Of a stretch of 64,000 nucleotides of DNA, positions 39,335 to 63,654 are shown one piece after another. A program made the position numbers and the translations under genes. The notes under the pieces are model-generated. The model made no database searches. It had not been told where the DNA came from and saw nothing but the letters and a program-made list of their open reading frames with translations. This DNA comes from a virus, in IMG/VR virus record IMGVR_UViG_3300008267_000013, positions 23,793-87,792 of that record; one strand, written 5' to 3'. Position 1 is the first letter of the stretch, and the number at the start of each line of letters is the position of its first letter.

Positions 39335-39339
39335 ATAAA

Positions 39340-41463: not shown

Positions 41464-41483
41464 ATGCGCCTCCCTATCCACCC

Positions 41484-42275: not shown

Positions 42276-42394
42276 AGATGTACTTTAAAGCTGCCACCCA
42301 CCGTTGTCAAGCAGGATGATCAGATAAAAGGTTGATGTGAGGGGGCCAGCCCCCCTGCACCCAGCTTTTTCTGCTGGGCCGGGGATGGCTAATG

Positions 42395-42440
42395 TTACTC
42401 GCGCTTCTTTAGGCCGTTCTTAAAAGTTGGGCGTTTCCAT
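42395..42440 (-). pseudogene. Displaced 3' remnant of gene 43199-44098
   Basis: Encodes KRPTFKNGLKKRE* versus ERPSYKNGLKKR* in the intact gene. Confidence 0.8.
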
Positions 42441-42471
42441 TTTTTTATACTATTTATTTTAGGAGATAAAA

Positions 42472-43197
42472 ATGACAGAAGAACAAAAAGCTTTAAAAAA
42501 AATAAAAGATAAGGAATATAGAGGTAAAAATAAAGATAAAGCAAAAGCTTGGAGGGAAGCTAATAAAGAGTACATTAAGGAATATAGAAAAAAATATTAT
42601 GAAGAAAATAAAGATGAATTATTAGAATATTATAAAAAACAGAGAGAAGAAAATCCTGGGGAGAATACTGAGCGCTGTAAAGAATATAGAAAAAATAACT
42701 TAGAAAAATTAAGAGGATACGATAGACAAAGAAGGAAGGAAGGGAAGAAAAAAGAATCCGATAAGAAATATCGCGATAAAAATAAAGATAAAGCTAAGGC
42801 ATATAAAAAAGAATATTCTAAAAAAAACAAAGATAAATTAAATGAATACAAAAAAGAATATTTGAAAGATAACCCAATGTATAGGACCCATAATCAATTT
42901 TCAAATGCTATACGAGATCATTTAAAAAAACTTTCAATTAATAAAACACGCAATTGGGAAGAATTAGTTGGTTATACCTTAGAAGATCTTATGAAGCACC
43001 TTGAATCGCTTTTCAAAGAAGGCATGACTTGGGATAACTATGGCAGTTATTGGCACATTGACCACGTTCGTCCCAAGTCATGGTTCATCTTTGAATCAGT
43101 CGAAGATCAAGCGTTCAAAGACTGCTGGGCATTGTCCAATCTTCAACCTTTGGAGGCTAGTCTCAATTGCTCTAAAGGTAACAGATACGAAGGTTAG
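42472..43197 (+). CDS. HNH endonuclease with Lys-rich helical repeats
   Basis: GMTWDNYGSYWHIDHVRP...NLQPLEASLNCSKGN; AT-rich insert in the GC-rich island. Confidence 0.9.
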   Translation: MTEEQKALKKIKDKEYRGKNKDKAKAWREANKEYIKEYRKKYYEENKDELLEYYKKQREENPGENTERCKEYRKNNLEKLRGYDRQRRKEGKKKESDKKYRDKNKDKAKAYKKEYSKKNKDKLNEYKKEYLKDNPMYRTHNQFSNAIRDHLKKLSINKTRNWEELVGYTLEDLMKHLESLFKEGMTWDNYGSYWHIDHVRPKSWFIFESVEDQAFKDCWALSNLQPLEASLNCSKGNRYEG

Positions 43198-43198
43198 T

Positions 43199-44098
43199 TT
43201 ATCTTTTCTTTAGGCCATTTTTATAAGACGGCCTCTCATGCCACTTGATAATCTTTTCAGCAACGTGTTCAGTCCCATCCTTGCCAAACCACAGAACCTC
43301 GATTAGCTTGCTGCCCTTGCCAGCACGCCAGCGACGTGTTTCTGCTGTTACCTTCATAACGGTGCCGATACGCTCAACCTCCTTGCTGGGAGTAGGAGTT
43401 GCGCCCCGGTGGACAACATCATAGTTGGAAACCCACAGGGGATCATGCCCATCATGCCCAATATAGGGATCACGCAGCTTGACAAGATCACCCGGCTCAT
43501 ACGGAGTGTCACGGTTCACTTCACGATAATGTGCAGCCTCATGGTGAGAAGTTACCGTGTTGAACATAAGGTAGGTTTCTGGACGGTTGCGATAACGCTC
43601 AGTCAGAGCTTCCGCAGCACTCCTTTCCTCCTGAGTTGAACTGTACTGGTTAACCTGCAAGCTGTTACCATAGCGATCATGCAGCCAGTATGAACTGTTG
43701 AAGAACTGCTTGTAGAAATCCTGCAAGTCCTCACGCTCGTCATACTCCTTGAGGAACTGTTCGTTTACTTCATCAAAAGCAGGGCTGGAGAAATAAGCGT
43801 ACTCAACACAACGCTCAAAGTTCCAGTTGGTCTTGACAACAGATCGGAAGTTTTCCTCGTTCACTTCCCAACGGTTGAATCGCTCGTCATAATATTCCTT
43901 TACCGTGTAAGGAGTCCCATCCTCATGGACTCCATAATAATGATTATGCTTCTGTGAACCGCGAACGACACACATATCCTTGATATTCTGTAGAGTGTAG
44001 CCCCGCGCAGGGTCCAGCATGATGCTGGCAATATTCTGTCGCTTGAGAGGGAACTTGGTGTTGGGAACAAACTTAACAATCTTCTTCTGACGCGCCAT
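43199..44098 (-). CDS. Hypothetical protein with C-terminal SH3-like domain
   Basis: 299 aa; YEPGDLV...IEVLWFG. Confidence 0.75.
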   Translation of the reverse strand: MARQKKIVKFVPNTKFPLKRQNIASIMLDPARGYTLQNIKDMCVVRGSQKHNHYYGVHEDGTPYTVKEYYDERFNRWEVNEENFRSVVKTNWNFERCVEYAYFSSPAFDEVNEQFLKEYDEREDLQDFYKQFFNSSYWLHDRYGNSLQVNQYSSTQEERSAAEALTERYRNRPETYLMFNTVTSHHEAAHYREVNRDTPYEPGDLVKLRDPYIGHDGHDPLWVSNYDVVHRGATPTPSKEVERIGTVMKVTAETRRWRAGKGSKLIEVLWFGKDGTEHVAEKIIKWHERPSYKNGLKKR

Positions 44099-44134
44099 GT
44101 GTCACCTCACCCGTCCATCGGGGATATTGACAAT

Positions 44135-44425
44135 CTATAACGGGATGCTGCTGCTGTCAAGCGCCTGCTTGCAATCTTCGCAACAATCTTTCGACAACTC
44201 TTTCCACGGTACCTTTGGCAGATTAAGGATTGCTTTTCTAACCTGCTCCCGCACACCATAATGAAAACAGTTTATTATATTGTAAGAGGTAAAGTTTCCA
44301 ACTCCTCTGGGGGTTACATTATGTGTGATTGTACATACCAGTTCAAAATCAGACAGTGCGATTAGCTCGCTCGCCAGTTTCTTCAAGCCTTCCTCGTCTA
44401 GCTTGTTTGACGGTATCCGCATCAC
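44135..44425 (-). CDS. Hypothetical protein
   Basis: AGGAGG RBS; promoter at 44465-44470. Confidence 0.6.
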   Translation of the reverse strand: MMRIPSNKLDEEGLKKLASELIALSDFELVCTITHNVTPRGVGNFTSYNIINCFHYGVREQVRKAILNLPKVPWKELSKDCCEDCKQALDSSSIPL

Positions 44426-44790
44426 GTCCTCCTGTCCACTCTATATAGAGCAGGCTGCTTCGCCTGTCAAGCTGGCGGGGCATAAGAAAAGGGAGTAGAG
44501 GGAGGGCTAGCCCCCTCAGCCAACCTTTAATTCCCAGCCGGGGAGGTTGACTAGAAGGAGGGGGCGGGGTACATTAAGAACATCAGGAGGACGGAACAAA
44601 TGGACTGGGACAACTTAGACGAGGAGATGGAGTGGGAGGGGGAGGACTGGTGTTGGGATGATGATATGCCGACTCCCGTTCACAATGCTTGGTGGTACGA
44701 CTTGACTGCTGAAGGTTAGTGTACTAGATTAACTTTTACGGGGCAATTGAGCCTCACACAAGCTGGCTAATCCAGCATCGGAGCAAGACA

Positions 44791-45108
44791 ATGGCTGCTA
44801 CCCGCGAGAACGTTCTGGCTGCTATCGTGAAGTACGTTGAGGATCATGGTCGCCGCGCCCCTGCCAAGGCTATCGCTGAGGCTGTTGGTGACAAGCTGCC
44901 GGTTGTGCAGGGCATCATCAAGGAGCTGGTCGCTGCTGGTTCTATTGAGTCGAGCCGTGGACGCAACGGCGGTGCAAAGCCCTCTGGTCAGAACATTGAC
45001 AAGGTTGAGGTTGAGACTGCTGCGTCCGACGAGGACATGGCCGCACAGTTTGCGGCACTTGTCAACCAGCTTGAGCAGGATGCAGAGGCCCAGGCCGCTG
45101 TTGGTTAG
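44791..45108 (+). CDS. Winged-HTH protein
   Basis: AKAIAEAVG...VQGIIKELVAAGSIESSRGRNGG; hairpin downstream. Confidence 0.8.
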   Translation: MAATRENVLAAIVKYVEDHGRRAPAKAIAEAVGDKLPVVQGIIKELVAAGSIESSRGRNGGAKPSGQNIDKVEVETAASDEDMAAQFAALVNQLEQDAEAQAAVG

Positions 45109-45340
45109 TTAACAATAGCAAAGGGTACAGGGGCCGCTCTCCATGTCGGGGGGCGGCCTCGTTGCATAGGTGCCTAAGATAGCACCCCCACCGCAGTAGA
45201 CAAGGGTGAATAAACTTTTTTTAGCAGGTAAAAAAGAGGGGTCGAAGAGGGCTAGCCCCTCCCGATTCCCGTTTTTTTCTGTAGACTCCCGGCGGGCTCT
45301 CGACTACTTTGACAATGTACCCACCACGGAGGAACACAAT

Positions 45341-45997
45341 ATGGCAAAGCTCCCTTGGATTCTCGGCAATGCGAAGTTGCAAAAGACTAGCGGCAATGGG
45401 TTCGGACGTGTTATTGGGTACGGGATCCCCCCAGACTTCGACTTCGAGGTTGACGGGAGTAACTTTAACACGTGTCCTGGTGCTCTTGCCTGTCGTGCCG
45501 TCTGCTATGCAAAGCAAGGCGCATATAACTGGCCGGCAACCAAGGCGGCGCGTCAACGTGCTCTTGAATCCACCCTCAGTCAATCGTTCGTTGACGATGC
45601 GGTCGCGGACCTTAAGCGGATGCGCGGCGTTGGTGTTGTACGTATCCACGACAGCGGTGATTTCTATTCGCAGACGTATCTGGACAAGTGGGTTGCAATT
45701 GCCCGTGCGTTCCCCAATATTATCTTTTACGCCTACACCAAGAGTGTCACGCTTGACTTCACAGGCATTCCCGAAAACTTCCGCGTCACCTTTTCGCTGG
45801 GTGGTAAGTATGATTCACAGGTTGACCTGAGCAAGCCGCACTCCCGTATCTTCACAACGCATGAGGATATGGAGCGGGCGGGATATGTAGACGGCGGCAA
45901 AAGCGATGCCCCGGCGATTCAAGGGCTGGTCAAGATCGGCCTCCCTTGGCACGGTGTTAAGAATCTAACAGACTCTCAAAAGAAGTTTTTCCGATAG
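45341..45997 (+). CDS. GP88-like phage protein (Cys motif, radical-SAM-like)
   Basis: GNAKL, TCPGALACRAVCYA, RIHDSGDFYS, FYAYTKS. Confidence 0.8.
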   Translation: MAKLPWILGNAKLQKTSGNGFGRVIGYGIPPDFDFEVDGSNFNTCPGALACRAVCYAKQGAYNWPATKAARQRALESTLSQSFVDDAVADLKRMRGVGVVRIHDSGDFYSQTYLDKWVAIARAFPNIIFYAYTKSVTLDFTGIPENFRVTFSLGGKYDSQVDLSKPHSRIFTTHEDMERAGYVDGGKSDAPAIQGLVKIGLPWHGVKNLTDSQKKFFR

Positions 45998-46338
45998 TGT
46001 AAAGCCCCACGGTGTCCAAAAAAAGGATGCCGAAGGGGGCTGGCCCCCTACCCCACCACTTTTCTGATGGCAGGGAGGGAGACCAGTCTTTTTTAGATAA
46101 GGAAACGCACGTTGCCCCTATTCTACCGCCCTAGAGTCAACGTGGAGACGCGATCGTCATCTTTGCGACACGGTATCGCCTAATAACCTTGCCGCCCTTC
46201 CTGAGGGGATTAACGTTGTTTAATTCCTGACAGCATGAGCGGGCATTCTTTCGCATGGTGAAGATAGCATCCTCGATCCGGCGCCAATTATTGCCAACAC
46301 GCTTTAGAACGGTATAGATATGATTCTTCTTTGTTGTC

Positions 46339-46566
46339 TTAATCGTCATCATCCATCTCCTCATCTGGCATGTCGTCAAGCTCTTGAGCGGCACGGTTAG
46401 CTAGAAACCCCATCTGTTTAACTTCATCGTCAGAGAAGTCATCTAGTTCAATATCTAAACCATATTCATCCTTGATCTCCAGGATTGATACCCGCCCGGT
46501 ATGTGAGACCTCGGCCAGAATATCATATTGACCAAAGTCATCCCGGAAGTTATAGTTGACGCGCAT
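46339..46566 (-). CDS. Small acidic protein
   Basis: D/E-rich, GAGG RBS. Confidence 0.65.
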   Translation of the reverse strand: MRVNYNFRDDFGQYDILAEVSHTGRVSILEIKDEYGLDIELDDFSDDEVKQMGFLANRAAQELDDMPDEEMDDDD

Positions 46567-46567
46567 T

Positions 46568-46744
46568 CTAGATCCCCTCCTCTACAACGATGTATGAAAC
46601 ACCTGTAGACTTGAGGCGACTGTTTAATACCTCCGCTCGATCAATAGCGGCCTGCTTATCCTTGAAACGTAGCGGCTGGCCATCGAATTGGACAACATGT
46701 CCGCCACTTGCGTAGATTGCTTTTATAACCCAATTTGTTTGCAT
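46568..46744 (-). CDS. Small protein, paralogue of 25904-26119 (not in ORF track)
   Basis: MQTNWVIK...DGQPLRFKDKQAAIDRAEVLN; AGGAG RBS. Confidence 0.6.
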   Translation of the reverse strand: MQTNWVIKAIYASGGHVVQFDGQPLRFKDKQAAIDRAEVLNSRLKSTGVSYIVVEEGI

Positions 46745-47170
46745 TTATTCTCCTGTGCCTTGAGGCACGTTATCATCAGTCTCGATCTTGGACTTGTTAC
46801 GGCGAATCCTCTTCCTCTTCAATTCGCGGTCATATTCAATAGAAAGGCAGCTCATCTTCTCAGGAACAGGAACCTCCCGTGCCTTAGCCTTGCGTGAGCC
46901 GCAGTTATCACACTTCGCACAGTCAAGGTGGTTGATACCACGGCAGCTACTATTAACGCACCGCCATGCGAAACCAGCCCGCACAAGAATACCACCAAGA
47001 ACAGCATACTCGTCTGCATCGTAGTTGTCAAGGTCAACAGCAGCAATCAGTCGATCAACAAAACCTTCGGTGAATTGCGTCTTGAGACGAACAGCAAAGT
47101 TATTCTTTCCACCCTTCTCGATCTCAGTCTGTGCGTCAACACTCTCGATATTATCCATGGCAACCTCCAA
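46745..47170 (-). CDS. Hypothetical protein with RanBP2-like Zn ribbon
   Basis: WRC...CRGINHLDCAKCDNCG. Confidence 0.65.
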   Translation of the reverse strand: MEVAMDNIESVDAQTEIEKGGKNNFAVRLKTQFTEGFVDRLIAAVDLDNYDADEYAVLGGILVRAGFAWRCVNSSCRGINHLDCAKCDNCGSRKAKAREVPVPEKMSCLSIEYDRELKRKRIRRNKSKIETDDNVPQGTGE

Positions 47171-47905
47171 AGTTAGTTAGCGTGACGGTAGTTAGCAGCA
47201 TCCCACTCAACAGGCAAGCTAATCTCATAATGCACATATTGTTGCCAATCAGCATAACCAAGCGACTGTGCGAGGCGGTCACGCTCCTCAACACTCATCA
47301 TGTCGTCGGTGCGACCAACAATCTTCTTGACCTTGTTGTAAACCATGTCAAACATAACAACCCCCAAGGTGAGCCAAGCCATGATCATATAAGTCGGCAT
47401 CTGTGTCCTCCCGTTCAACTGAAGCTATATTCTCATGAGACGGGGATGGTTGCAACAAAGAAAAAGATGTAAGCGGAGGGGCTAGCCCTCCCCGGTCCCG
47501 GTTTATATTCAGCCGGGTGGGAGGCAATCCTACAAGAAGAACTTGACAACGAATGCAGTTGCAACGCCACCAGTCAAGGCACCAAGGAGGAGCGAATAAC
47601 GCACAAGATTAACAACCTGCTCATCGTTGAAGGAATAGGAGATGGAGTTAACAGACGACAGACGCTTTGAGACGCGCATGAGAAGCCTCCAGGGAGTTGG
47701 TGAGTCTTTGTAGATCATGGCAACCGCCGGAACATATCATACCATTGCTGGACAAGCAACGCATAAGTTTCTGTGATGGAACCGCTACTCTTCTTCTTCG
47801 TTGGCTTCTTCCCGCCAGTCCTCTTCCTCTTGGCGATTGTACTCTTTTTTTGATCGGTGTGGTCCACTTTTTGTTACCCCTTGGATGATGCGAACCATGT
47901 GAATG

Positions 47906-48151
47906 TCACGCGTTCTTATTCGTGAACTTCCAGCCATCAGGCGCCGTTTCATTCCACACCTCGCGTGCATACTCGGGGTCGATCACATCAAGGTCGGCAA
48001 AAAGATCAGAAACAACTTTATAGCTATCACGACCCTTGGTCCACACGCCATGATCGTCGCTGTAATCATACCACCAATCATGACGGCTCATCACGTTGCG
48101 GAGCTGGGTGGCAACAGTTTCACGGTCCTTGAGGATGGGGAGATTGTTCAT
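47906..48151 (-). CDS. Hypothetical phage protein
   Basis: HDWWYDYSDD motif; AGGAG RBS. Confidence 0.7.
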   Translation of the reverse strand: MNNLPILKDRETVATQLRNVMSRHDWWYDYSDDHGVWTKGRDSYKVVSDLFADLDVIDPEYAREVWNETAPDGWKFTNKNA

Positions 48152-49328
48152 CTGTGTTCTCCTAGCAGCACCGTGCTGCCTATGAACTGATATTACGTCA
48201 GGACGGGTCAGCGTACAAGATAAAAAAACGGTGATGAAAAGGGGCTAGTCCCCCTTGCCAACCCTTTTATGGGCTGGTGGGGGCATCCCATATGTTGCGG
48301 CTGGGTGGTACCGCCGGGGCCTAATACACCCCTTCCAGTTCTGCACTTGTATCATACCATGCGGCCAGAGGGCAAGCCTCATCCTGCCAGTCGGTCATCT
48401 CCTCATAAGCCTCACGGCTGTCAACCTTCTGACACTCATGGAGGGCCATGAGTTCAACAGGCGGCGGAGCGATGTAACCAACAACACCCTCACGCTCCAG
48501 AGCCTCCTCGCGCTCGACAAGCTCTTCGGCTTCACGGTCAGTCATGGGGGGAACCTCGTCAGAGAAAAGGTGCTGGTGGGCTTCGGTCAAGGTCATGGTG
48601 TCTCCAAGATTGCGACAGCGGCGCAGGGCTTCAATGAAGTTGGTGTCGTGGTGACGCATCTTTTGTCTCCAGAGTTGATCTAGTCTAGTGTCCTGCAATC
48701 TAGTTGTCAAGCCGGTACATGGCGGCAACAATGATGAGGGCAACTACAAGGGAAGAGAAAAAGATGTTCATGATGCGGTCGTTGTTCATGTTTGACTCCG
48801 TGTCGTGCGCTGTTGATGAAGTGATATTCTCATGGAACCGGCAGGGTGACAAGATAAAAAAAGGGTGCAGGATAGGGGCTGGCCCCCTCTGCCAATCCTT
48901 TTTGGACTGGCTGGGGTCTTAGCCTATCGGGGTTCGGAGTCCTTCACCAGCTGTTCAAACTGGTCATACACCCGCTGCCGGTTGCCGTTCAGTTTGTAGA
49001 CACGTTTAACGTGGGCATACATGGAACCCCCTCTGTGCTTCAATCCAGCAAGCTCTAGCTTCAGAGCCGAAAGCTGGGTCCGCATATGATACCAGTTGAT
49101 CGATTGCAGGCCCGTGATCAATGACATAGCTTCTCCTTCTCGTCCCCATAATCACCAGAGCAGCAGGGGCCGCAGATTGCAACCTCCTGTCCATTGATCG
49201 CCCCAACAACACCATGCAGGGAGGGATCGAAGTAGACCCCGCAGCAGTTGCACCTCTTGTCCATTAGAGCGACCTCCCGGGGTTGGTGGCAACAGCCACG
49301 ATGGCAATGATGATAAACGTCATTGAGA

Positions 49329-49574
49329 TCAAAGGTCACACTCCTTCCAGCTCATGCCATTCATCGCCATGAGCTGACGCAGCCCACCCTGCTGGCAGCT
49401 CGTTGTCACACTATAACGTCCGCTGTTCAATGTCAAGACACCATCCTTCCTACAGAGTAGCGGAGTGTTATAAGAAAAAATGATGCTGCCATCAGTCCAG
49501 ATCGAAGTGGACTTGCGGCAAGTCTTGCCTGCGTTCCAAGCATTGAAGGCATCCTGAACATTCTTGCGGGCCAT
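49329..49574 (-). CDS. Hypothetical early protein
   Basis: MARKNVQDAF...IFSYNTPL...YSVTTSCQQ; GGAGG RBS. Confidence 0.65.
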   Translation of the reverse strand: MARKNVQDAFNAWNAGKTCRKSTSIWTDGSIIFSYNTPLLCRKDGVLTLNSGRYSVTTSCQQGGLRQLMAMNGMSWKECDL

Positions 49575-50062
49575 GGCATCCTCCGTTGTGTGCCGTCTTG
49601 ATGTGTCTAATCTCTCATGGGTTGACTGCCTTGGCAAGAAGAATAAACGATTGCTTGTGGGGGCTAGCCTGCCACGATCAACCTTTTTCCTGGGCAGCAT
49701 ATAAACTTTTTTAAAGCTTGACTGGCATGAACACTTTTATTTTTATGTATGGGGTGGTGGGGAGGGGAGGTGGTCATACTGCAAGATGTCACAATATAAG
49801 TCCCTAGAGATATTAAAAAGGGTTAAAAACGGGCATAACCCTCGCACCAACTCCCGGAAAAATTCTCATTTTTGAAACATATAATATTTTAAGAAAACTT
49901 TAACATGTGTTATATTAATCGTCAACAAAAATTTTTTTAAAAAATTTCTAGGATTTCTTCTTGTCTACTGTTTAAATAACTGGTAGTCTATATACAATAT
50001 ATTTTGTTATCTTTATTTAAAAAAATATCTACTTATAGTATACAGGAGAGCAATCAAATATT

Positions 50063-50830
50063 ATGAAGATAACTAAAGAATACTTAAAGCAAGTAATAAA
50101 AGAAGAACTAAATAATCTTGAAGAAGCTTCTTTTTTAGATAAGCTAGCAAATACAGCTCGCAATGTTGTATCCCCTATCAAAAGAGTAAGCTTGTCCCCA
50201 ACTGGTGCTGCTGCTGTTTCAAATGATGAAACCGTTATTCGTGACATACTATCATCTAAGCATGTTGATGTTGTTAATGGTTTTAAAGCAACAGTTACTA
50301 ATTTTTTGATGCCCGGTAAAGCAACCAGCGTTGCTAATATGTTTAGCAATTTAAAGAAACGTTTTCCATTTGGAGATAAATTTTATACATCACTTCAAAA
50401 TTACTTGGGTTATTCTGGTAAAACAACTCCCGGCACAGCTAACATAGAGAAGTTTAAAAAACTTATTGATGATATAAAGCCAGGGCAGACTAAAAAAATA
50501 AAAGAAGCTGATGTTCCTGGGGCCTTATCTGATAGAGAAAGGGATGCTTCCGTAAGATCAACTGCTTCAAAATACGGCTTATCAGCTGGTGATGCCGTCA
50601 AAGCGGACGATATCGACAAGGCTCTAACAACCTTAGCCACCGATAAAACAAATTTAACACCAGATGAGATGGCAGATGTTGCTTCTAAAAAAGGTCTTGG
50701 GGCAGATAAAAACATTCTTGATAAAATGACTTCCTCTGCTTCTGCACAACAATCCTCAGCCAGCCCCACAACCACATCATCACCGGCGACCAAAGTTCCA
50801 CTTGCATTACGTCGTCTTAGAGTTAAGTAA
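50063..50830 (+). CDS. Protein with MKITKEYLKQVIKEEL leader (putative internal head protein)
   Basis: Shared leader; CTACTTAT motif upstream. Confidence 0.65.
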   Translation: MKITKEYLKQVIKEELNNLEEASFLDKLANTARNVVSPIKRVSLSPTGAAAVSNDETVIRDILSSKHVDVVNGFKATVTNFLMPGKATSVANMFSNLKKRFPFGDKFYTSLQNYLGYSGKTTPGTANIEKFKKLIDDIKPGQTKKIKEADVPGALSDRERDASVRSTASKYGLSAGDAVKADDIDKALTTLATDKTNLTPDEMADVASKKGLGADKNILDKMTSSASAQQSSASPTTTSSPATKVPLALRRLRVK

Positions 50831-50860
50831 TCAAATAACATTACAGAAAGGTAGTATATA

Positions 50861-51097
50861 ATGAATTCTCAAGTCAATCAACAACGTATGAACGTAGATC
50901 TATCAAATGCTCTTGATATAGTTTGTGAAGAGTGTGGCTGCAAGACCTTCCGTGAGGTTGCTTTTATCAAAAAAGTTTCTGCTCTTGTTTCGCCAACCGG
51001 CAAGGAAGCTGTTGTTCCTGTTGGAACTTTCTGCTGTTCCTCATGCGGTCATGTGAATAAAGAATTCGATCCATTCCACAAACCAGTTGCGCCCTAG
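50861..51097 (+). CDS. Zn-ribbon protein
   Basis: CEECG...SALVSPTGKE...CSSCGH. Confidence 0.75.
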   Translation: MNSQVNQQRMNVDLSNALDIVCEECGCKTFREVAFIKKVSALVSPTGKEAVVPVGTFCCSSCGHVNKEFDPFHKPVAP

Positions 51098-53526: not shown

Positions 53527-53528
53527 CA

Positions 53529-55002: not shown

Positions 55003-55350
55003 ATGAAAACTATATTTGAAGAAACAGCAGAGAGAATAGGTAAATTAGTAGCAGAAAAGAACGTAGCTTACGGAAGTTCTTTTTCACAAGCTCACAAAAT
55101 TCTAGAGGTGCTGTATCCACAAGGTATAGCACCTCATCAATTTACTGATGCACTTGCAATTATTAGGGTAGTAGATAAGCTTTTTAGAATCGCAACTAAA
55201 AAAGATGCTTTTGGAGAAAGTCCTTGGCAAGATATTGCTGGCTATGCAATACTTGGTGTAGTAAAGGCTGAAAATGAATCCAGACAGATGGATACTGAAC
55301 GAAACAAAAAGATGGACCTCCTTACTGAAGAAGCTGAGGAAAGAAAATAA
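55003..55350 (+). CDS. Nucleotide-modification-associated domain (Nmad1/DUF1599-like) protein
   Basis: EKNVAYGSSF, RVVDKLFRI, WQDIAGYAILG. Confidence 0.75.
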   Translation: MKTIFEETAERIGKLVAEKNVAYGSSFSQAHKILEVLYPQGIAPHQFTDALAIIRVVDKLFRIATKKDAFGESPWQDIAGYAILGVVKAENESRQMDTERNKKMDLLTEEAEERK

Positions 55351-55714
55351 AAGTAGTGAAGAGTTTGAGGTTATGTTAAATAATCTTACATTAGAAGAAT
55401 TAATTGCAATGAAGTTAGAATTATCTTCTAAAACTCTAAGAAGCCCATTATTTGGTACCCCTATCTGGGAGCATATACCACAGATAGTGCAAGATGCTGT
55501 ACTAGTGTTTGCTATATCCACTACACAAACTTACAATGAAGCTGCAGCATTTCTTGGAATGACACCATATAAATTATTTAGATTAATAAAAAAATATAAA
55601 ATTGATAACTACTTAGATTTAAATTATAAAGAAAAGTTTTGGAAGCGTAGAGAAGAAAAAGCCAGACAAAAACAGGAATATTTAGATGGTAAAAAAAATA
55701 CAGAGCAAGTCTAA
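55274..55714 (+). CDS. Fis-like HTH protein
   Basis: EAAAFLGMTPYKLFRLIKKYKI; start uncertain. Confidence 0.6.
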   Translation: MNPDRWILNETKRWTSLLKKLRKENKSSEEFEVMLNNLTLEELIAMKLELSSKTLRSPLFGTPIWEHIPQIVQDAVLVFAISTTQTYNEAAAFLGMTPYKLFRLIKKYKIDNYLDLNYKEKFWKRREEKARQKQEYLDGKKNTEQV

Positions 55715-56019
55715 TACGTTTAAAAAAGTCTTAATATCTCTAGGCATTGGTGCTATGATTAGCACAGTTGTATGGTTAGTTCTTGACAGAAGAGCAGTTC
55801 ATAATATGGTATGTCAAATAGTAGCTGTAGATGAACAAGAAGGCATTGTAGCAGTTAGGTGTTTGGCAAAATGAGTATGTTTGCAGTATGTTTTATGATA
55901 CAATGTGCTAATGTATGTGCAGAAATTATTGTTAATAACGATGCTTCATATTCTGTTGGAGAGTTTAAGATTGTAAATTATGATGAGGAGTGCTTAAGAA
56001 ACGAAAATAAATAAATTTA

Positions 56020-56058
56020 TGGGGATATAGCTCAACTGGTAGAGCACCGCGTTTGCAA
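56020..56058 (+). pseudogene. 5' half of a disrupted tRNA-Ala(UGC)
   Basis: GGGGATA-TA-GCTC-AACTGGTA-GAGC-A-CCGCG-TTTGCAA then breaks; matching 3' end ATCTCCACCA at 56721-56730. Confidence 0.8.
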
Positions 56059-56062
56059 AAGA

Positions 56063-56584
56063 CTAACCCCATCTTCCTGATTTTGTTAAATAATGTTGTT
56101 CATCGTGACATCTAGAACATAAAATAATTAAATTATCTAAAGAATTGTTTTCTCTATTTCTATCTTTATGATGAACTTCTAAAATTTGAGGAATCTTGTT
56201 ATAACCACACTCAGCACATTCGTTAGGAAAATTTCGAAGAGCTATTTCTCGATAGTTGCTAGAACCACCAGAATAATGTGGAGGATGAATTTCTTTTAAA
56301 CCAAATTCTAATCTTTGTGCTAAATCTTTATGTTCTCTACAGCAAAAATGTAAATTTGATTTAGATGTCTTTTTTTTAGAATTATTTTTGTAGAACATTA
56401 CATGACAATAACTACATTCGACATTAGGTATATTAATTTTAGCGTTTCTTTCTAAGTGAGTTTTAGAAACACCAATTTTTGAACATTTTTTAGAACAATA
56501 TTTAGCATTGCCTCTATTTACTTCACGTGATTGTGCTTGAAAAATTTCCTTACATTCCTTACAAATTTGTGATATAGTTTTCAT
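56063..56584 (-). CDS. HNH homing endonuclease
   Basis: CAECG...LEVHHKDRNRENNSLDNLIILCSRCH plus N-terminal Zn repeats. Confidence 0.9.
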   Translation of the reverse strand: MKTISQICKECKEIFQAQSREVNRGNAKYCSKKCSKIGVSKTHLERNAKINIPNVECSYCHVMFYKNNSKKKTSKSNLHFCCREHKDLAQRLEFGLKEIHPPHYSGGSSNYREIALRNFPNECAECGYNKIPQILEVHHKDRNRENNSLDNLIILCSRCHDEQHYLTKSGRWG

Positions 56585-56598
56585 AGTTAACCTTTAGT

Positions 56599-56676
56599 GG
56601 GTCGCGGGACTGCATAGTGTGGTCACCTGTCTTGCACACAGGAAATCAGCTCGAAGCATTATCGAGGCGATCCACC
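56599..56676 (+). tRNA. tRNA-Ala(UGC), non-canonical
   Basis: GGGTCGC/GCGATCC+ACCA with G3:U70; loop CTTGCAC; T-loop AGCATTA. Confidence 0.75.
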
Positions 56677-56873
56677 ACTAATATATAGTGGAGAAATATA
56701 AATTTACACCAAAATAATTAATCTCCACCACTGAAGAGAGCGCATAAGAGCATGCCCCTGACGCTGAAGTCTTATGCGGTTAACGCGACGGAAAAGGGAT
56801 GCATACCTGAGTACAGACTCTCTCTTATATTGCAATATAAATCATTTGCGTCTGGAATAGACGAAGGAGGCAA

Positions 56874-57150
56874 GATGAGTGATGAATCAGAGCAAGTTGT
56901 TAATGGTGACCCTTGGACCAATGAACGTTATCTATCTTCTTATGAAGAGGCGACATTTTTAAGAGACAGTCTAAAGGCAAGGGACCATTCTGGAACTCTA
57001 CAAGTTAAAATTAAGCGATGCGGTGTTGGTGGAACTTTATATGTTGTTAAAAGCCGCCAATCTAAAGAACTACGTGCCGCTACAGCTGCTGTAGAAGAAG
57101 AACTAAACGCCCCCAAACCAGCCAAGAAATCAAAAAAAGCTAAAAACTAG
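56874..57150 (+). CDS. Hypothetical protein
   Basis: AAGGAGG RBS before MSDESEQ. Confidence 0.65.
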
Positions 57151-57159
57151 GGGTATAAA

Positions 57160-57756
57160 ATGTTTAGATTAACTTCAGAACAAGAACAAACCAAAACCAA
57201 GGCCGAGGAAGCAGAGGACGAATCCTCAGTAGAAACATCTGGATGTAAGATATTTTATTATTCAGAAGTCAATAGAGACTCTGTATTGAGTCTAAACAGA
57301 CAACTTATCGACCTTTCAAATAAATTATTAAACGCTTCAAATGTTTATGAAATCCCAGTACCACATATTAAATTACATATAAACAGTGGTGGTGGAAGTT
57401 TACTTGACGGATTCGCAGCGGTGGACTATATTAAAGCTTGCAAGGCCCCGGTTCACTCAATTATTGATGGAAGCGCTGCTAGTGCGGCAACTCTTATGAG
57501 CGTGGTAGCACAAAAACGTAGCATTCATAAGCACTCATTTATGCTTATCCATCAATTATCGGGCGGTATGTGGGGTAAATACGAAGATATTGTTGATGAT
57601 TTTAAAAATTCTACAAGGTTTATGGAGACAATCAACACTATATATACCCAACATACCAAGATCCCTGCTAAAGAACTAAAAGAAATGTTAAAAAGAGATT
57701 TGTGGTTTGACGCAAAAACTTGTCTCAAGTATGGTCTTGTAGACGAAATTATCTAA
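57160..57756 (+). CDS. clpP: ClpP-like serine protease (copy 2)
   Basis: INSGGG, GSAASAA (Ser), MLIHQ (His), RDLWF (Asp), YGLVDEI. Confidence 0.92.
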   Translation: MFRLTSEQEQTKTKAEEAEDESSVETSGCKIFYYSEVNRDSVLSLNRQLIDLSNKLLNASNVYEIPVPHIKLHINSGGGSLLDGFAAVDYIKACKAPVHSIIDGSAASAATLMSVVAQKRSIHKHSFMLIHQLSGGMWGKYEDIVDDFKNSTRFMETINTIYTQHTKIPAKELKEMLKRDLWFDAKTCLKYGLVDEII

Positions 57757-57771
57757 AGGAGAAAGTAAGTA

Positions 57772-57957
57772 ATGAAGAAAGTAATTTTAGTAGCAATTCT
57801 AGTAAGTGTTATCGGTTTTGTAGCTGGCTGTGTAAATGATCCAACTGTAGATCAACGTACCATGACTGATACTTCAACTGATACAGGCAGCGAAGTAAGT
57901 GTAGACGTAACCAGCACCTCAACTGGTACCGAAACAAGTACAGAAGTTGCGAATTAA
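57772..57957 (+). CDS. Thr/Ser-rich lipoprotein
   Basis: Signal peptide with lipobox VAG-C. Confidence 0.7.
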   Translation: MKKVILVAILVSVIGFVAGCVNDPTVDQRTMTDTSTDTGSEVSVDVTSTSTGTETSTEVAN

Positions 57958-57966
57958 TAATAAAAG

Positions 57967-58041
57967 GCGGGTGTAGTTCAGTGGTAGAACTTTAGTTTTC
58001 CAAACTAAATGTCGCTGGTTCAACCCCAGTCACCCGCTCCA
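57967..58041 (+). tRNA. tRNA-Gly(UCC)
   Basis: GCGGGTG/CACCCGC+TCCA; loop TTTCCAA. Confidence 0.92.
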
Positions 58042-58364
58042 CTTGAGATGTCCGTTGAAAGTTCTAGTCCATAATGAAGACCTCAACGCCGAGAACAAAA
58101 CGGAAGGCGCTGGTCAACTTAACAAGGAGAATAAATGTCGCTAAAGCATGACTTCTGCCACAATAGAAAAATGAAATTAATTGCTTATGAAGAAATGATT
58201 GATGAGAAAAGTTACATTTTTATTCGTTGTGCTGGAGAAGAAATGCGTATGCCAATAGCGGCATGGCGTGAATTAAATGCAGCATGGAATGAAAAAGCAT
58301 GGGATGAAAAATTTGATGTTCTACAAGACTGCATCCCAGAAATTCAGGAAGAGCTATAGTTTAT

Positions 58365-58655
58365 TGGTCAGTAGCCAAGCGGCAAGGCAGCGAGCTGTAA
58401 ATTAGCAGCGTTTGATAGAAATATCAAAATGAAAAGATTGTAATATCAAGGAACCCTCTGTTTGAACTTTAAACGTGGCAATCTTGAGCCAAGCAAAAGT
58501 AGAAATACTTTTGAAGGTGCAGAGACTATAATCAGTCCATCTTAACGTAAAGCCGAAGATGATGGAATAGTCCAGACCACAAACCGAAAGGGTAGCGAAA
58601 GCTATAGTGGTAAGTAACTCGCCTAGCGTAGGTTCGATTCCTACCTGACCAGCCA
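58365..58655 (+). tRNA. tRNA-Asn(GUU) with group I intron
   Basis: Exons join as GCGAG-CTGT|TAA-CTCGC; acceptor TGGTCAG/CTGACCA+GCCA. Confidence 0.9.
58399..58614 (+). ncRNA. Group I intron in tRNA-Asn
   Basis: GCAGAGACTATAA and ATAGTCCAGACCACAAAC core; P1 GCTGT/GCAGC; P10 TAA/TTA; terminal G. Confidence 0.9.
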
Positions 58656-58772
58656 ACCTAACAACCACTAAGTGCCTAAAAAACATTTAGTGGTTGTTTT
58701 TTTCAACATTATAAACACTCAAGCTACTATAGTTGAGACACTAACAAAGCGGTTAAACCGCAAGGAGAAAAT

Positions 58773-59177
58773 ATGTCACGTTTCATGATCGCACTATCAC
58801 TAGCTCTACTATCTGTATCAGCCCGTGCAGTAGAAACAACCACAACACAATCTACTGTCGGAGTTTCTACTTCATCACCAAACCAAACTACTCAATCAAC
58901 TGATGGCGGTAAGAGAGATAATCATGGTCAAAGAGTAAAAGAAGTAGCTACTGGTGACACTAAAGGTAACGATAAACGCGATGAAAACCGTGAGGTTAGA
59001 CAAGAACGTCGTGAGTTACGTCAAACACGTAGAGATGAACGTCGCGAGCGTCGTGAACAACGCCGTACCGAACGTCTAGAAACCAAAAACACCTCAGTTA
59101 CAACGGAAGTTTCAGTTGTTAATGGCGATAAACACGAAGGCTCTGGTCGTAAAGACCGTGAATCAGGTAAACGCTAA
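58773..59177 (+). CDS. Exported low-complexity protein (Thr-rich, then R/E-rich)
   Basis: Signal peptide ending ARA; terminator ~59208-59239. Confidence 0.7.
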   Translation: MSRFMIALSLALLSVSARAVETTTTQSTVGVSTSSPNQTTQSTDGGKRDNHGQRVKEVATGDTKGNDKRDENREVRQERRELRQTRRDERRERREQRRTERLETKNTSVTTEVSVVNGDKHEGSGRKDRESGKR

Positions 59178-59803
59178 CATAGAATTTAAATAAAATATTC
59201 TAGAAACTGAGCCAACTTGAAAGAGTTGGCTCTTTTTTTGTCTACTTGACGAGCAATACAGTAGTTGCTATAGTCTTCTTCTTGATGCTTGACAGGCAAG
59301 CATCAACTACCGTGGAGCAAATTAATGTCTGATAAGATTCCTTACGTTCAAATGAAGCTTGTATTTGAAGAGATGATGAATTCTACATTTGGAGAAATGG
59401 GGAAGCTTGTTCATGGGTGGTCAAAGGATGAATTTCTTGCCAATTACAAGGAAGAAATGATTGCTGAAACGGAAGAAGAGACATATGATATTGTATTAAC
59501 TGCCCCAAACACCCTACAGTAGAGGCACAAATGAGTCACACAAAGCAAGAGGCATACAATATAATTGGTCAAATTAGGTGTGTTAGCGCTGAAGATGTGG
59601 GCGATGGCACAATGAAAGTTGTTTTTGACTATGATGAAAAGTTTAAAGATGAATATAAGCGACTTTTTAATCTAAAAAGATTCTCAAAAAAGCATTTTGA
59701 ACAGCAGTTAGAACAAGCAATCAAACATTTTGCTGAAAAAATAGAGCTTGAAACTGGTTTACGTGAACTGCGTGAAGATGTCATCAAGACACTTGAGGAT
59801 TAA

Positions 59804-60355
59804 ATGACTGATAATTCTGAAATCCAGGGCCTTAATGTCAGTGACAAGTACAAGTTTGATCGTCTAACTCGCTGGACAAAGGATCTTATCAAGAAGGATC
59901 TCCAGCAAAACGCATTTCCATATGCTGTATGTATGGAAAACTGGGCCGGTGACTTTAATTTAAGTAGCTGCATAAGGGCAGTAAATGCTCTTGGTGGTTC
60001 TGAAATGTATTATCTTGGTAGGAAGCATTATGATAAACGCGGAGCGGTAGGCACATATAACTATACGCAGGTGTCGCATCTTTCTACAAGAGAAGAACTT
60101 TTAAGGTTAAAAGAAAAATATGTACTTGTTGGACTTGAAAATACAGTTTCGAATCCACAATCACTTTATGATTACACATGGGATAAAAATTCTTTAATTA
60201 TCGCTGGTGAGGAGGGTATTGGCATTACACCGGAAACTCTAGAATTATGTGATAAGTTTGTTTATATTCCTCAATACGGCTCAGTGAGAAGTATGAATGC
60301 AGCTGCGGCAGTAAGTATTGCTTTATATGATTACACATCAAAATTTAAAAAATAA
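59804..60355 (+). CDS. SpoU/TrmH-family RNA 2'-O-methyltransferase
   Basis: FNLSSCIRAVNALG, GEEGIGI, IPQYGSVRSMNAAAA. Confidence 0.92.
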   Translation: MTDNSEIQGLNVSDKYKFDRLTRWTKDLIKKDLQQNAFPYAVCMENWAGDFNLSSCIRAVNALGGSEMYYLGRKHYDKRGAVGTYNYTQVSHLSTREELLRLKEKYVLVGLENTVSNPQSLYDYTWDKNSLIIAGEEGIGITPETLELCDKFVYIPQYGSVRSMNAAAAVSIALYDYTSKFKK

Positions 60356-60388
60356 TGATGTGTTCCAAAAGTACCAACTAATTATTTT

Positions 60389-61306
60389 ATGGAAAATAAA
60401 ATAAAATGTGTTAAATGTAAATTAGAAAAAGAAAGTGCTTCATATACTTTAAACACTGGGGATAGATATTCAAAAACTTGTTTAGAGTGCAGAAAAAAAT
60501 TAAATAAAGAAAAATATCTTAGAAGAAAAAAAACTTTATCTATAAAAGATAAAATTATAAAATATGAAGCTTATTATGATGAAAACAATGTTTTAATAGC
60601 ACAAAAATGTGCTAAATGTTTTTTAATTAAAAGCTTAGATAATTATTTTAAAAATAAATCAAGAAAAACAGGTTTTGATAAATATTGTAAAGATTGCCGC
60701 CATACCAGTAGAGTCAATCGTTCTGAAGAAAAAGCAAAAATAGAAAGACAAAAAAATAATGAAAGATATCATAAAAACAAAGAAAAAATAAATAAAGACA
60801 TAAAAAATAAAAGAAAAAACGACAAAAAATATATAGAAAAATACCTATCTTATAAAAAAAAATATTACTCTAAGGAAGAAAATAAAATTAGACGAAGACT
60901 TAAATATAAACAATATCATAAAAACAAACAAAAAAATGATCCTTGTTATAGAATGATGTTTGTTATGCGAACTAGATTGCGCAATGAAATAAAAAAATCA
61001 CTAGGTAAAAAAACTAAAAAGTTTAGTGAATTTTTAGGAATCGACTATGTTTCTTTTAAACAATATATAGAAAAACAATTTACGGAGCATATGAGTTGGG
61101 ATAATTATGGTACTTATTGGGTAATAGACCACATAAAACCGTGTTGTTCATATGATTTAACAATTGTCGAACAACAACAAGAATGTTTTAATTATAAAAA
61201 TTTGCGGCCTTTAGAAACAAAAGAAAATTTAATAAAGGCAGGCGAAGATAGAAAATTATCAATTAAAACAAACAAAAAAATATGTTATCCACCTAAAGAC
61301 GCGTGA
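60389..61306 (+). CDS. HNH endonuclease with Zn-finger and Lys-rich N-terminus
   Basis: MSWDNYGTYWVIDHIKP...NLRPLETKENLIK. Confidence 0.9.
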   Translation: MENKIKCVKCKLEKESASYTLNTGDRYSKTCLECRKKLNKEKYLRRKKTLSIKDKIIKYEAYYDENNVLIAQKCAKCFLIKSLDNYFKNKSRKTGFDKYCKDCRHTSRVNRSEEKAKIERQKNNERYHKNKEKINKDIKNKRKNDKKYIEKYLSYKKKYYSKEENKIRRRLKYKQYHKNKQKNDPCYRMMFVMRTRLRNEIKKSLGKKTKKFSEFLGIDYVSFKQYIEKQFTEHMSWDNYGTYWVIDHIKPCCSYDLTIVEQQQECFNYKNLRPLETKENLIKAGEDRKLSIKTNKKICYPPKDA

Positions 61307-61586
61307 CCAGTTGCTCAAGCTTAGGGAGGAATACGAGCTTGTGGCTATTGAAAATACTGTGCCGTCTGCTGTTGCTCTGGCTAACGCTGAATATAAGCGT
61401 CCTCCTCTATTTATATTGGGCGAAGAGGGTGTCGGAATCACTCCAGAAACCCTTGAACTTTGTGAAAAGTTTGTATATATTCCTCAGTGGGGAAGTGTTC
61501 GTAGTCTCAATGCTGCTGTGGCTGGCAGTATCATTATGAATGATTTTGTGACTAATCATGCGCATAAATTTTCAAATAAGAATTAA
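61284..61586 (+). pseudogene. Displaced C-terminal half of the SpoU methyltransferase
   Basis: VIHLKTRDQLLKL...GEEGVGITPETLELCEKFVYIPQWGSVRSLN parallels the intact copy; N-terminal half absent. Confidence 0.85.
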
Positions 61587-61667
61587 AAGTTTATACTACA
61601 TATTGTAAGATGAAGGCACCGGATAAGATTCATCGGTGCCTTTTTTCTTATCAAAGGAACCATTTAA

Positions 61668-62993
61668 ATGGCTAAAAAAACCGGCAAGAAGATCTACGTT
61701 ATAGATACTAACGTATTTCTAAGTGATTTTAATGCTGTATATGCTTTTAAGGATAACGATATTGTTGTTCCTATAAAAGTTCTTGAAGAAATTGATAAGC
61801 ACAAAAAGCGCCAAGATGGTGTTGGTGCTAATGCGCGTCAAGTTATTCGCGTATTTGATGCTTTAAGAGAAAAGGGTGAGCTAACTGCAGGTGTTAAAAT
61901 TAGTGGCAAGAAAGGGACTTTAACCGTTAAAGGCTACGGCCCCGTAAGTCCATTACCAAGTGAAATGTCAATACAAGACCCTGATAATCAAATACTTGCA
62001 ACCGTTAAAACTGTAATAGCTGATAGTCCGGAAGCAAAAGTTATTCTCGTATCTCAAGATATTAATATGAGAGTTAAGGCTGGTGCTCTTGGAATTACAG
62101 CCGAAGATTATACAACAAATCAAATTGTTGAAAAGATGGAAGAAATCTATACTGGATTTACTTCTTATCTTGTCGATGATCATTTAATTGATCGTTTCTA
62201 TGCTAACGAACGTATATTTGTAGACATAAAAGATATATCCCTACAACCAAATCAATATGTAATGTTAGTTTCAAATGCTAACGAAAAGAAAACAGCACTA
62301 TCTAGATTCAGAAACTACAATCATCCACTCTCAAAAGTAAGAGAATATCGTGATGGTATCTGGGATATTCGCGCTAAAAATAAAGAACAACAATTTGCTT
62401 TTGATCTATTAATGGACCCAGAGATAAAGATTGTTTCGCTTGTAGGTCTTGCTGGTTGTGGAAAAACTCTAATAGCCCTTGCTGCCGCACTAGAACAAAC
62501 TATAGCAGCAGAAATTTATAAGAAAATTATTGTTTCGCGACCCGTAGAGCCAATGGGACGCGATATTGGATTCCTACCTGGCACTCTAGAAGAAAAAATG
62601 GCACCTTGGGTTGCTCCAATTCAAGACAATCTTGAGTTCCTTATGGGTGACGACAAAGAGCATCTAAAAATGCTACAAGAAAAAGGAACTATTGAAGTTG
62701 AAGCACTAACATTTATTCGTGGTCGTTCTATTTCAAAAGCTTTTATTATAATTGATGAAGCACAAAACTTAACAATGCATGAACTAAAAACAATCATCAC
62801 TCGCGTTGGTGAAGATACAAAAATTGTTCTAACTGGTGATATTGCTCAAATTGATAATCATTTTCTAGATGCCACCAATAATGGTCTAACTTATGCTGTA
62901 GAAAAGTTTAAACCATTTGAATTAGCTGGTCATGTAACCTTGCAAAAAGGTGAAAGATCTGCGGTTGCCAGTCTGGCTGCTAATGTTCTTTAA
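61668..62993 (+). CDS. phoH: PIN-PhoH (PhoH2-type) protein
   Basis: VIDTNV PIN domain; GLAGCGKT, IGFLPG, FIRGRS, IDEAQN, TGDIAQID. Confidence 0.95.
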   Translation: MAKKTGKKIYVIDTNVFLSDFNAVYAFKDNDIVVPIKVLEEIDKHKKRQDGVGANARQVIRVFDALREKGELTAGVKISGKKGTLTVKGYGPVSPLPSEMSIQDPDNQILATVKTVIADSPEAKVILVSQDINMRVKAGALGITAEDYTTNQIVEKMEEIYTGFTSYLVDDHLIDRFYANERIFVDIKDISLQPNQYVMLVSNANEKKTALSRFRNYNHPLSKVREYRDGIWDIRAKNKEQQFAFDLLMDPEIKIVSLVGLAGCGKTLIALAAALEQTIAAEIYKKIIVSRPVEPMGRDIGFLPGTLEEKMAPWVAPIQDNLEFLMGDDKEHLKMLQEKGTIEVEALTFIRGRSISKAFIIIDEAQNLTMHELKTIITRVGEDTKIVLTGDIAQIDNHFLDATNNGLTYAVEKFKPFELAGHVTLQKGERSAVASLAANVL

Positions 62994-63042
62994 GTTGCTT
63001 TTTCAAATTTTCAACACTATGTAATGTAGTGGAGGAAATAAA

Positions 63043-63654
63043 ATGATTAAAAAAATAACAAAAGAAGGAACATGGAAAGAAAAAAGAGTATTGGTAGAAT
63101 GTGAAATATGTCACAAAGAAAGAGAAGTTGCCTATAGAGTAGCAGTAGATAAGAGCAATCTAATTCATAGATGTATTTCTTGTGCAACAATTAATACACA
63201 GACAGGCCTGAAAAGATCAGAAGAAACTAAAAAAAATATAAGTAGAGCTCTTAGAAAAATAAATAATGGTGGAATTAGATATAATCAATCTGGTGGTTAT
63301 AAACAAATATTAGTCGATAATGATCATCCAAGAAAAAAAGATAGAAAAGGCGGTAGCTACATTTTTGAGCATATATTGACTATGGAGCAAAAAGTAGGAA
63401 GATTTCTTGAAAAGCATGAAATAGTACACCATATAGACAAAGATAAACAAAATAATAACATAGAAAATTTACACTTATTTTCTGGAAACAACAATAAAGA
63501 ATCATCACAAATGCATAACGCAGCACATGAAAGTTTAGAACAAGTAGGTATTGAATTATATAAACTTGGTCTAGTTAAATTCGTAGATGGAAAGTACAAT
63601 CTACCAGAAGAAATCAAACAAGCAGTCGCTAGTCTAGCTGCCTCGGTACTCTAA
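63043..63654 (+). CDS. HNH homing endonuclease with C-terminus borrowed from old phoH end
   Basis: YIFEHIL...IVHHIDKDKQNNNIENL; ends AVASLAASVL. Confidence 0.9.
   Translation: MIKKITKEGTWKEKRVLVECEICHKEREVAYRVAVDKSNLIHRCISCATINTQTGLKRSEETKKNISRALRKINNGGIRYNQSGGYKQILVDNDHPRKKDRKGGSYIFEHILTMEQKVGRFLEKHEIVHHIDKDKQNNNIENLHLFSGNNNKESSQMHNAAHESLEQVGIELYKLGLVKFVDGKYNLPEEIKQAVASLAASVL

Follow-up and report, generated by a model that had tools for sequence, protein, structure and literature searches.

Nuclease genes between whole and truncated copies of their targets: candidate end-replacing homing cassettes at four loci of a large uncultured phage

How does a free-standing nuclease gene come to lie between a working gene and a displaced piece of that same gene, and what keeps the gene whole? 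The question is raised four times by the final 64 kilobases (kb) of an 87.8-kb viral contig in IMG/VR (record IMGVR_UViG_3300008267_000013); this whole stretch of 64,000 nucleotides (nt) is called the window here. The source is a large uncultured phage, and the completeness of the contig estimated by CheckV is 43%. Free-standing homing endonucleases of phages are usually pictured as lying between genes or as splitting genes. We estimate a probability of roughly three in four that the four loci of the window are homing cassettes that replace the end of their target gene.

The four sites involve gene 43199, a transfer RNA gene for alanine (tRNA-Ala), a SpoU methyltransferase gene and a PIN-PhoH gene. 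At all four, a nuclease gene has an intact gene on one side and a second, truncated copy of that gene on the other, as the initial annotation of this DNA had proposed (Table 1). The two short displaced tails, those of gene 43199 and PhoH, were the top non-self matches to their own queries in the six frames of the window (scores of 39 vs 26 for the next best match, and of 59 vs 32), and both are positioned just across the nuclease gene from the working copy. A search for Rfam group I introns in the window found them in three tRNA genes only and at none of the four cassettes. In the two same-strand cases, SpoU and PhoH, the working gene already has its stop codon before the nuclease gene begins. 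The four nucleases are thus not encoded by introns or inteins.

The initial annotation had called all four nucleases HNH proteins. Pfam searches supported this for genes 56063 and 63043 but gave no hit for genes 42472 and 60389, which matched PHROG 1035, 'endonuclease VII' (Endo VII), and are paralogous to each other (35% identity). PHROG 1035 is a His-Me finger family, as HNH is. The catalytic motifs HH..D..N..N and DH..P..N..N..K are visible in the nuclease translations, and the profile matches and the presence of catalytic His and Asn residues place the four in the His-Me/HNH family.

Table 1. Features at the four nuclease sites, with coordinates in the window (E, expectation value)
Site	Feature	Coordinates	Strand	Evidence or remark
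Gene 43199	Working copy, 299 residues	43199..44098	-	Open reading frame; ends ...KWHERPSYKNGLKKR and stop
Gene 43199	Free-standing Endo VII-type His-Me nuclease, 241 residues	42472..43197	+	PHROG 1035 'endonuclease VII', E 8.8e-13
Gene 43199	Displaced tail, 15 codons and stop	42395..42442	-	Reads ...KWKRPTFKNGLKKRE and stop
tRNA-Ala	Complete non-canonical tRNA-Ala(UGC), working copy	56599..56677	+	Covariation, identity elements
tRNA-Ala	HNH nuclease, 173 residues	56063..56584	- (antisense to tRNAs)	Pfam HNH_3 and HNH
tRNA-Ala	Displaced piece: canonical tRNA-Ala(UGC) 5' half, positions 1-38	56021..56058	+	Partial Rfam tRNA match
tRNA-Ala	Conserved element of 45 nt, downstream of the complete tRNA	56686..56730	+	TTT[GA]CAC; 3' end TCTCCACCA
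SpoU	Intact SpoU methyltransferase gene, working copy	59804..60355	+	Pfam SpoU_methylase positions 3-142 of 142
SpoU	Free-standing Endo VII-type His-Me nuclease, 305 residues	60389..61306	+	PHROG 1035, E 3.8e-12
SpoU	Native 3' part of SpoU, displaced (from codon ~88 to the end)	61282..61586	+	Pfam SpoU positions 71-141
PhoH	PIN-PhoH working gene	61668..62993	+	Pfam PIN_4 and PhoH; ends ...SAVASLAANVL and stop
PhoH	HNH_3 nuclease, 203 residues	63043..63654	+	Pfam HNH_3
PhoH	Displaced PhoH tail AVASLAASVL and stop, 33 nt	63622..63654	+	End of nuclease frame (in frame)

Parts of the contig (up to one quarter of the sampled words) occur mostly in freshwater metagenomes. Public Logan metagenome contigs (runs numbered X1-X6) were aligned to window 59700-63950; low or missing coverage of the nuclease genes in X1, X3 and X6 was given no weight as evidence. 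A 2.6-kb contig of run X6 consists, in this order, of window 59702-59940, 148 other nt and window 61302-62407. It represents a nuclease-free allele with one SpoU gene, which starts as the first 137 nt of the window gene and ends as the remnant, to which it is ~95% identical in DNA; this is the match to the remnant that the initial annotation had predicted. A contig of run X1 has a joint from 59940 to 61332 that agrees with X6, its shorter side being supported by 33 letters only. Both contigs match the window from 59700/59702 to 59940 and then diverge. Because the X6 contig shares the first 137 nt and then follows the remnant, the intact SpoU gene is a chimera with a crossover near 59940: it is native to about that position, and its part from 59941 to 60355 is foreign. 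Native SpoU sequence of about 125 nt was lost, and the native 3' part from about codon 88 was displaced behind the nuclease gene. The last ~8 codons of nuclease 60389 overlap this remnant in a different frame.

Comparison with related phage contigs agreed with this picture. Five relatives, G001-G005 (contigs of 79-168 kb, with a completeness of ~90% for G002 and G004), have PhoH, SpoU, ClpP and tRNA regions in common with the window. When 13 relatives were compared, the C-terminal half of the SpoU protein of G001, the nearest relative in IMG/VR, was 83% identical to the remnant, whereas the intact copy was ~63% identical to G001 in each of its halves. In G001, SpoU is directly followed by PhoH, and none of these nuclease families is present. 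G002 carries a 40%-identical homologue of nuclease 60389 after an intact SpoU gene. A search for donor-like relatives gave nothing nearer than 64% to the intact SpoU and 40% to nuclease 60389; distant homologues of this nuclease at five loci (L127-L131) do not adjoin SpoU, and GenBank phages yielded no megablast match to window 52-64 kb. We considered a wholly foreign origin of the intact SpoU gene, both halves of which are ~63% identical to G001, and rejected it on the ground that its first 137 nt are common to the nuclease-free close relatives. The displaced SpoU fragment lies within an open frame (61236-61586, plus strand) of 116 codons from stop to stop, with possible TTG or GTG starts; its product would be limited to the C-terminal half of the SpoU domain.

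Each nuclease gene has a copy on either side, and one might suppose that gene ends were first partially duplicated in tandem and that nuclease genes were inserted between the copies later, although nothing observed here directly favours that order of events. The nuclease-free alleles are single-copy and lack the nuclease gene and the second gene end together, both in the Logan contigs and in G001; none of these, at SpoU or PhoH, carried both copies, an arrangement that would have spoken against end replacement. Moreover, the intact C-terminal half of SpoU and the remnant are just 55% identical in protein (tblastn of the pair, E ~1e-31) and one of them is far nearer to the backbone relative, and the two PhoH tails differ by recoding. 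A history in which duplication came first is therefore very improbable. Another possibility is that the window is a chimera of nuclease-plus and nuclease-minus strains made in metagenome assembly, given that the contig is metagenomic and that both types of allele co-occur in freshwater runs. However, separately assembled Logan contigs of run X2 span the junctions at 60355/60389, 61282 and 62993/63043 with 0 differences; X2 is possibly the source sample, which makes this an independent assembly but not an independent sample. The PhoH layout also appears in unrelated contigs and in protein clusters from other sources, and an assembly artefact is extremely improbable.

The PhoH site showed the same single-copy state in the absence of the nuclease gene. 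Four nuclease-free contigs (one of X1, two of X3 and one of X6) match the window as far as 62968-62972 and resume with the next gene at 63653/4, so that 681-684 nt of the window are missing from the empty sites. Each carries its own tail of 21-25 nt, which reads SLAAQVL and stop in three of the four; the tail of the second X3 contig differs. In copy number and insertion point, PhoH thus agreed with the proposal of the initial annotation. The last ~90 nt of the working PhoH gene and the 49-nt spacer behind it (62994-63042) are 86-91% identical to locus L003, the nuclease of which is 72% identical to nuclease 63043, vs 75% and 42% for G001. These values suggest that the last ~25-90 nt of PhoH and the spacer travel with the nuclease gene, and that the working PhoH gene, like SpoU, combines a recipient 5' part with a foreign 3' part.

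At its other end, the HNH_3 gene (ending ...KQAVASLAASVL and stop) is fused in frame to the displaced PhoH tail, and its stop codon overlaps the start of the next gene, gene 63654, as TAATG. In G004, an overlap of this stop-start type lies between PhoH itself and the counterpart of gene 63654. Scans of IMG/VR and of metagenomes yielded 13 close loci of this PhoH-linked nuclease (HNHb). It lies directly after PhoH in 12 of the 13, down to 50% nuclease identity, the remaining locus (L220) having no upstream sequence available, and a PhoH-type tail ends 12 of 29 HNHb protein clusters in frame. In the window, L140, L141 and L216, conserved GERS codons immediately precede the junction. These three loci also carry working and displaced tails side by side, recoded relative to each other (for example, Ser as TCC vs AGC), with differences that are synonymous or conservative. 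In a tree of the nucleases built with the last 22 residues left out, the tail state was scattered and required 7 changes, at least 4 of which were forced by well-supported branches. In L003, L136, L137 and L139, the nucleases end differently and no remnant is present. The element thus occupies a fixed in-gene position in many phages. The recurrence that the initial annotation took as a sign of a general strategy is real for the PhoH element, which was found at this same position in distant phages; nothing comparable was found for the other three sites. In L140 and L141 (~666-1684), the match to PhoH is split by ~1 kb between residues 305 and 306, possibly by an intein or an intron, or by some other insert.

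The tRNA-Ala site fits replacement of the target in its outcome, although its history is less clear than those of SpoU and PhoH. The working gene here is not a chimera; a whole different tRNA stands in its place. The displaced canonical 5' half stops at the end of the anticodon loop, and in G001 the homologue of the upstream gene 55859 is directly followed by a complete canonical tRNA-Ala. HNH gene 56063 adjoins the tRNA half and lacks ~11 C-terminal codons and a terminator that are found in five homologues. The complete tRNA has G3:U70, A73 and an encoded CCA; its D loop reads GCATAGTGT and its T loop AGCATTA. Our DNA pattern search found this non-canonical family in 21 viral contigs (the window and L104, L106-L111, L113-L119 and L121-L126), including three Asp(GUC) variants (L111, L116 and L121). 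The D loop of the family is GCATAGNGT and its T loop is GGCGGTA or AGCATTA, with neither the canonical GG nor TTCRANY. In an alignment of 17 distinct copies, 99.7% of the cells of the cloverleaf were paired, and changes on both sides occurred in 16 of the 21 pairs. G3:U70 is present in 16 of the 17 copies, with A73 and CCA kept; L111, which has an Asp anticodon, carries C3:G70 and G73. ARAGORN and the Rfam tRNA model (E<=1) called no non-canonical copy, and neither the half nor the complete tRNA-Ala of the window was called by these programs, the half giving a partial Rfam match only. Only the canonical tRNA-Ala was found in G001. In G002 and G004, the only tRNA-Ala found is non-canonical, and because these two genomes have no canonical one, the non-canonical molecule is probably a functional tRNA-Ala.

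The conserved 45-nt element that follows the complete tRNA is also present in this position at L093, L094 and L096, three of four copies compared from relatives; the flank of the fourth, L097, differs. Its TTT[GA]CAC motif resembles an anticodon loop and its TCTCCACCA end is of the tRNA-Ala type, so the element may be the decayed 3' half of the split tRNA-Ala.

Gene 43199, the product of which had no Pfam or PHROG hit, is convergent with nuclease 42472. The window is AT-rich overall, with an island of 45-50% guanine plus cytosine (GC) at 32-52 kb. Near 43300, GC falls from 0.56 to 0.42, and the last ~48 nt of the gene (43199-43246) form an AT-rich, putative replacement tail. The nuclease gene has a GC of 0.20-0.31 within an island of 0.45-0.55, and the remnant has GC-rich codons as in the island, followed by a terminator-like hairpin. 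The tail type of the remnant, RPT[LF]KNGLK[KT]RE and stop, also occurs in the distant homologues P0035 and P0039. The nearest homologue, P0030, is 94% identical, and its sequence departs from that of the working copy just past ...KWHERP. No close relatives were found in IMG/VR, where homologues of 33-39% identity occur in three relatives only. GC content and codon choice make it plausible that the working end is foreign and the remnant native, and that gene 43199 is a chimera. Hairpins centred on GGGGCTAGCCCC and flanked by A and T tracts recur through the GC-rich island (~34750-49700), and one of them stands directly after the gene 43199 remnant.

The initial annotation had also supposed that the replacement end restores the target without splicing. 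This was supported by the chimeric SpoU gene and, in copy number and insertion point, by PhoH; gene 43199 would follow it as judged from composition, and tRNA-Ala has a different geometry. A mechanism that would produce these layouts can be outlined as follows. The mobile unit would be a free-standing His-Me/HNH nuclease gene together with the adjoining part of the target gene from a donor phage. During co-infection, the nuclease would cut the nuclease-free allele within the gene, and the donor would serve as the template for repair of the break. With one crossover in the shared 5' part of the target gene, the recipient would receive the nuclease gene along with the foreign gene end, and the leftover gene end of the recipient would be displaced behind the nuclease, outside the gene. 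The chimeric target would be whole without splicing and presumably free of the cut site. The displaced piece may act as the downstream homology arm, and the displaced PhoH tail may keep the downstream gene translationally coupled. The tRNA-Ala cassette would have brought a complete, structurally unusual tRNA-Ala instead of a gene end.

Several observations weigh against end replacement by such cassettes, or against a role for the displaced piece in it. The cut site in the empty allele is a predicted one, as is the resistance that the chimeric allele would have. The displaced piece is dispensable and may be a by-product, because the same nucleases follow an intact PhoH or SpoU gene with no remnant in L003/L135, L136, L137, L139 and G002. 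At three sites, the nuclease gene meets the remnant with a truncated or altered 3' end, which looks like illegitimate joining rather than a designed boundary. The PhoH remnant, at 33 nt, is too short to be assigned to an allele, and the tail of P0030 matches neither copy of gene 43199 well. In G002-G005, the module of an HNH gene and a non-canonical tRNA follows tRNA-Gly, tRNA-Thr or tRNA-Ser, with no canonical half. The non-canonical tRNA, which is mostly found within ordinary tRNA arrays, also occurs in many arrays with no nuclease nearby and is therefore not intrinsically part of the cassette.

The same observations could be read as scars without function. On that account, ordinary intergenic homing endonucleases entered this genome by one-sided break repair, the replacement end is only a co-converted flank and the remnant is debris destined to disappear; the gene side was joined by homology and the other side illegitimately, since the downstream DNA was too diverged. 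The remnant-free nucleases that lie cleanly between genes in relatives and the damaged nuclease ends of the window agree with this, as does the low identity of the downstream gene 63654 among relatives (just 35-45%), and one-sided illegitimate repair with microhomology junctions has been documented for T4 intron homing (PMC2988022). However, the PhoH tail is fused at the same codon in clusters and in loci that reach down to 50% nuclease identity, a recurrence that random joins are unlikely to give and that appears to weaken the view of the fusion as a one-off scar. This account shares most of its steps with end replacement and differs only on the role of the displaced piece, for which the recurrent in-frame fusion at one codon argues and against which the damaged nuclease ends and the remnant-free relatives argue. 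We regard scars without function as unlikely. A bolder form of the end-replacement reading is possible but doubtful: end replacement would be a common, selected mode of homing in large phages, with the displaced fragment as a working part (a homology arm and, at PhoH, a coupling adaptor), and the tRNA swap, through its altered D and T loops, would give immunity to the nuclease and possibly to host defences that target tRNAs.

Two more free-standing nuclease genes of the contig, one in the window (39340..39855, minus strand) and one upstream of it, had no detected remnant. The former, a fifth HNH_3 gene, lies between an intron-bearing tRNA-Leu gene and an odd tRNA-Arg(UCU)-like gene (39263-39334, minus strand), the counterparts of which in G001 are only 7 nt apart. 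A duplicated target end was not established there, the similarity of the two genes being limited to 18 nt of the T arm. The tRNA-Arg-like gene, which stands just after this HNH gene, has a 7-bp acceptor stem, a canonical T arm with a single base difference from the T arm of the adjacent tRNA-Leu, an aberrant D region and possibly a 6-bp anticodon stem; ARAGORN did not call it. The upstream gene is a third nuclease of the Endo VII type (16428-17069, in G000:C1:14828-18031). It fits tightly between an NrdB-like gene and a gene resembling DnaB that has LAGLIDADG-type intein motifs, labels that were read from the translations rather than profile-tested, and no remnant was seen. The group I introns of the window are compact (~210 nt), contain no open reading frame and are mutually related. 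They interrupt the anticodon loops of tRNA-Leu(UAA), tRNA-Ile(UAU) and tRNA-Asn(GUU), at 39925-40221 (minus strand), 40257-40549 (minus strand) and 58365-58655 (plus strand). In G001, tRNA-Leu(UAA) and tRNA-Asn(GUU) are intronless and the sole tRNA-Ile has a GAU anticodon; in G002, tRNA-Asn has an intron and tRNA-Leu(UAA) and tRNA-Ile(UAU) are intronless.

The layout has close counterparts outside phages. In the WHO elements of Torulaspora and Lachancea yeasts, the target is closely followed by the nuclease gene, and homing swaps the 3' end of FBA1 for the presumably resistant version of the donor, with the old 3' end displaced downstream (Coughlan et al. 2020, PMC7282813). The 3' end of the target is fast-evolving and mosaic, allele-specific cleavage has been demonstrated, and the WHO model needs the downstream fragment as a homology arm (PMC7282813). 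The phage cassettes resemble WHO elements in the replaced 3' end, the displaced fragment and the absence of splicing. However, WHO nucleases are derived from inteins, are of the LAGLIDADG type and act in a eukaryotic nuclear genome with meiosis, whereas those of the window are of the HNH or Endo VII type in a phage; moreover, allele-specific cleavage and a homology-arm role of the displaced piece are putative in the phage cassettes. Gene hybrids with mobile endonuclease genes (mORFs) in fungal mitochondria, in Allomyces atp6 and in Glomus atp6, atp9, cox2 and nad3, have the order of inserted foreign C-terminus, endonuclease gene and native C-terminus (Beaudet et al. 2013, PMC3630166). The native piece is nearer to a close relative than the inserted piece is, some endonuclease frames are in phase with the gene they follow, and one Glomus genome holds four such hybrids (PMC3630166). 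These are points of likeness with the window, where the match of the native piece to a relative was seen at SpoU; however, the mORF endonucleases are LAGLIDADG or GIY-YIG proteins of organelle genomes, and the phage set includes an RNA gene and one nuclease in the opposite orientation. Both the layout and the test of whether the native piece matches a relative have therefore already been published for these yeast and fungal systems.

Among phages, the T4-type free-standing endonucleases SegB (in a tRNA cluster), SegG and MobE show flank co-conversion and one-sided illegitimate repair, and nucleases of this type are intergenic or split genes, as do mobE in nrdA of Aeh1 and mobA in gene 60 (PMC2988022). 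They share with the window free-standing nucleases in a large phage, break repair with co-conversion and one association with tRNA, but they are not described there with a replacement gene end and a displaced remnant. In the available description, F-CphI of cyanophage S-PM2 is a free-standing homing endonuclease with an Endo VII motif that targets the intron insertion site of psbA (PMC6083498); on that description, the likeness lies in the Endo VII catalytic motif, the paralogs 42472 and 60389 matching the PHROG 'endonuclease VII' family. In a limited search of the phage literature, this layout was not found, although co-conversion, the splitting of genes and nucleases at the boundaries of recombination were. 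The natural evidence from the window is unusually direct, with empty and filled alleles both present in metagenomes.

These findings suggest that phage nucleases can enter conserved genes and keep them whole through a substitute end. End replacement offers a simple reading of two features of phage genomes that are puzzling in annotation, mosaic 3' ends and pseudogenes of gene ends, and the displaced-end layout marks likely cut sites. The non-canonical tRNA-Ala family indicates that functional-looking phage tRNAs escape standard tRNA finders. Since freshwater metagenomes contain alleles with and without the nuclease side by side, it should be possible to follow the process in nature.

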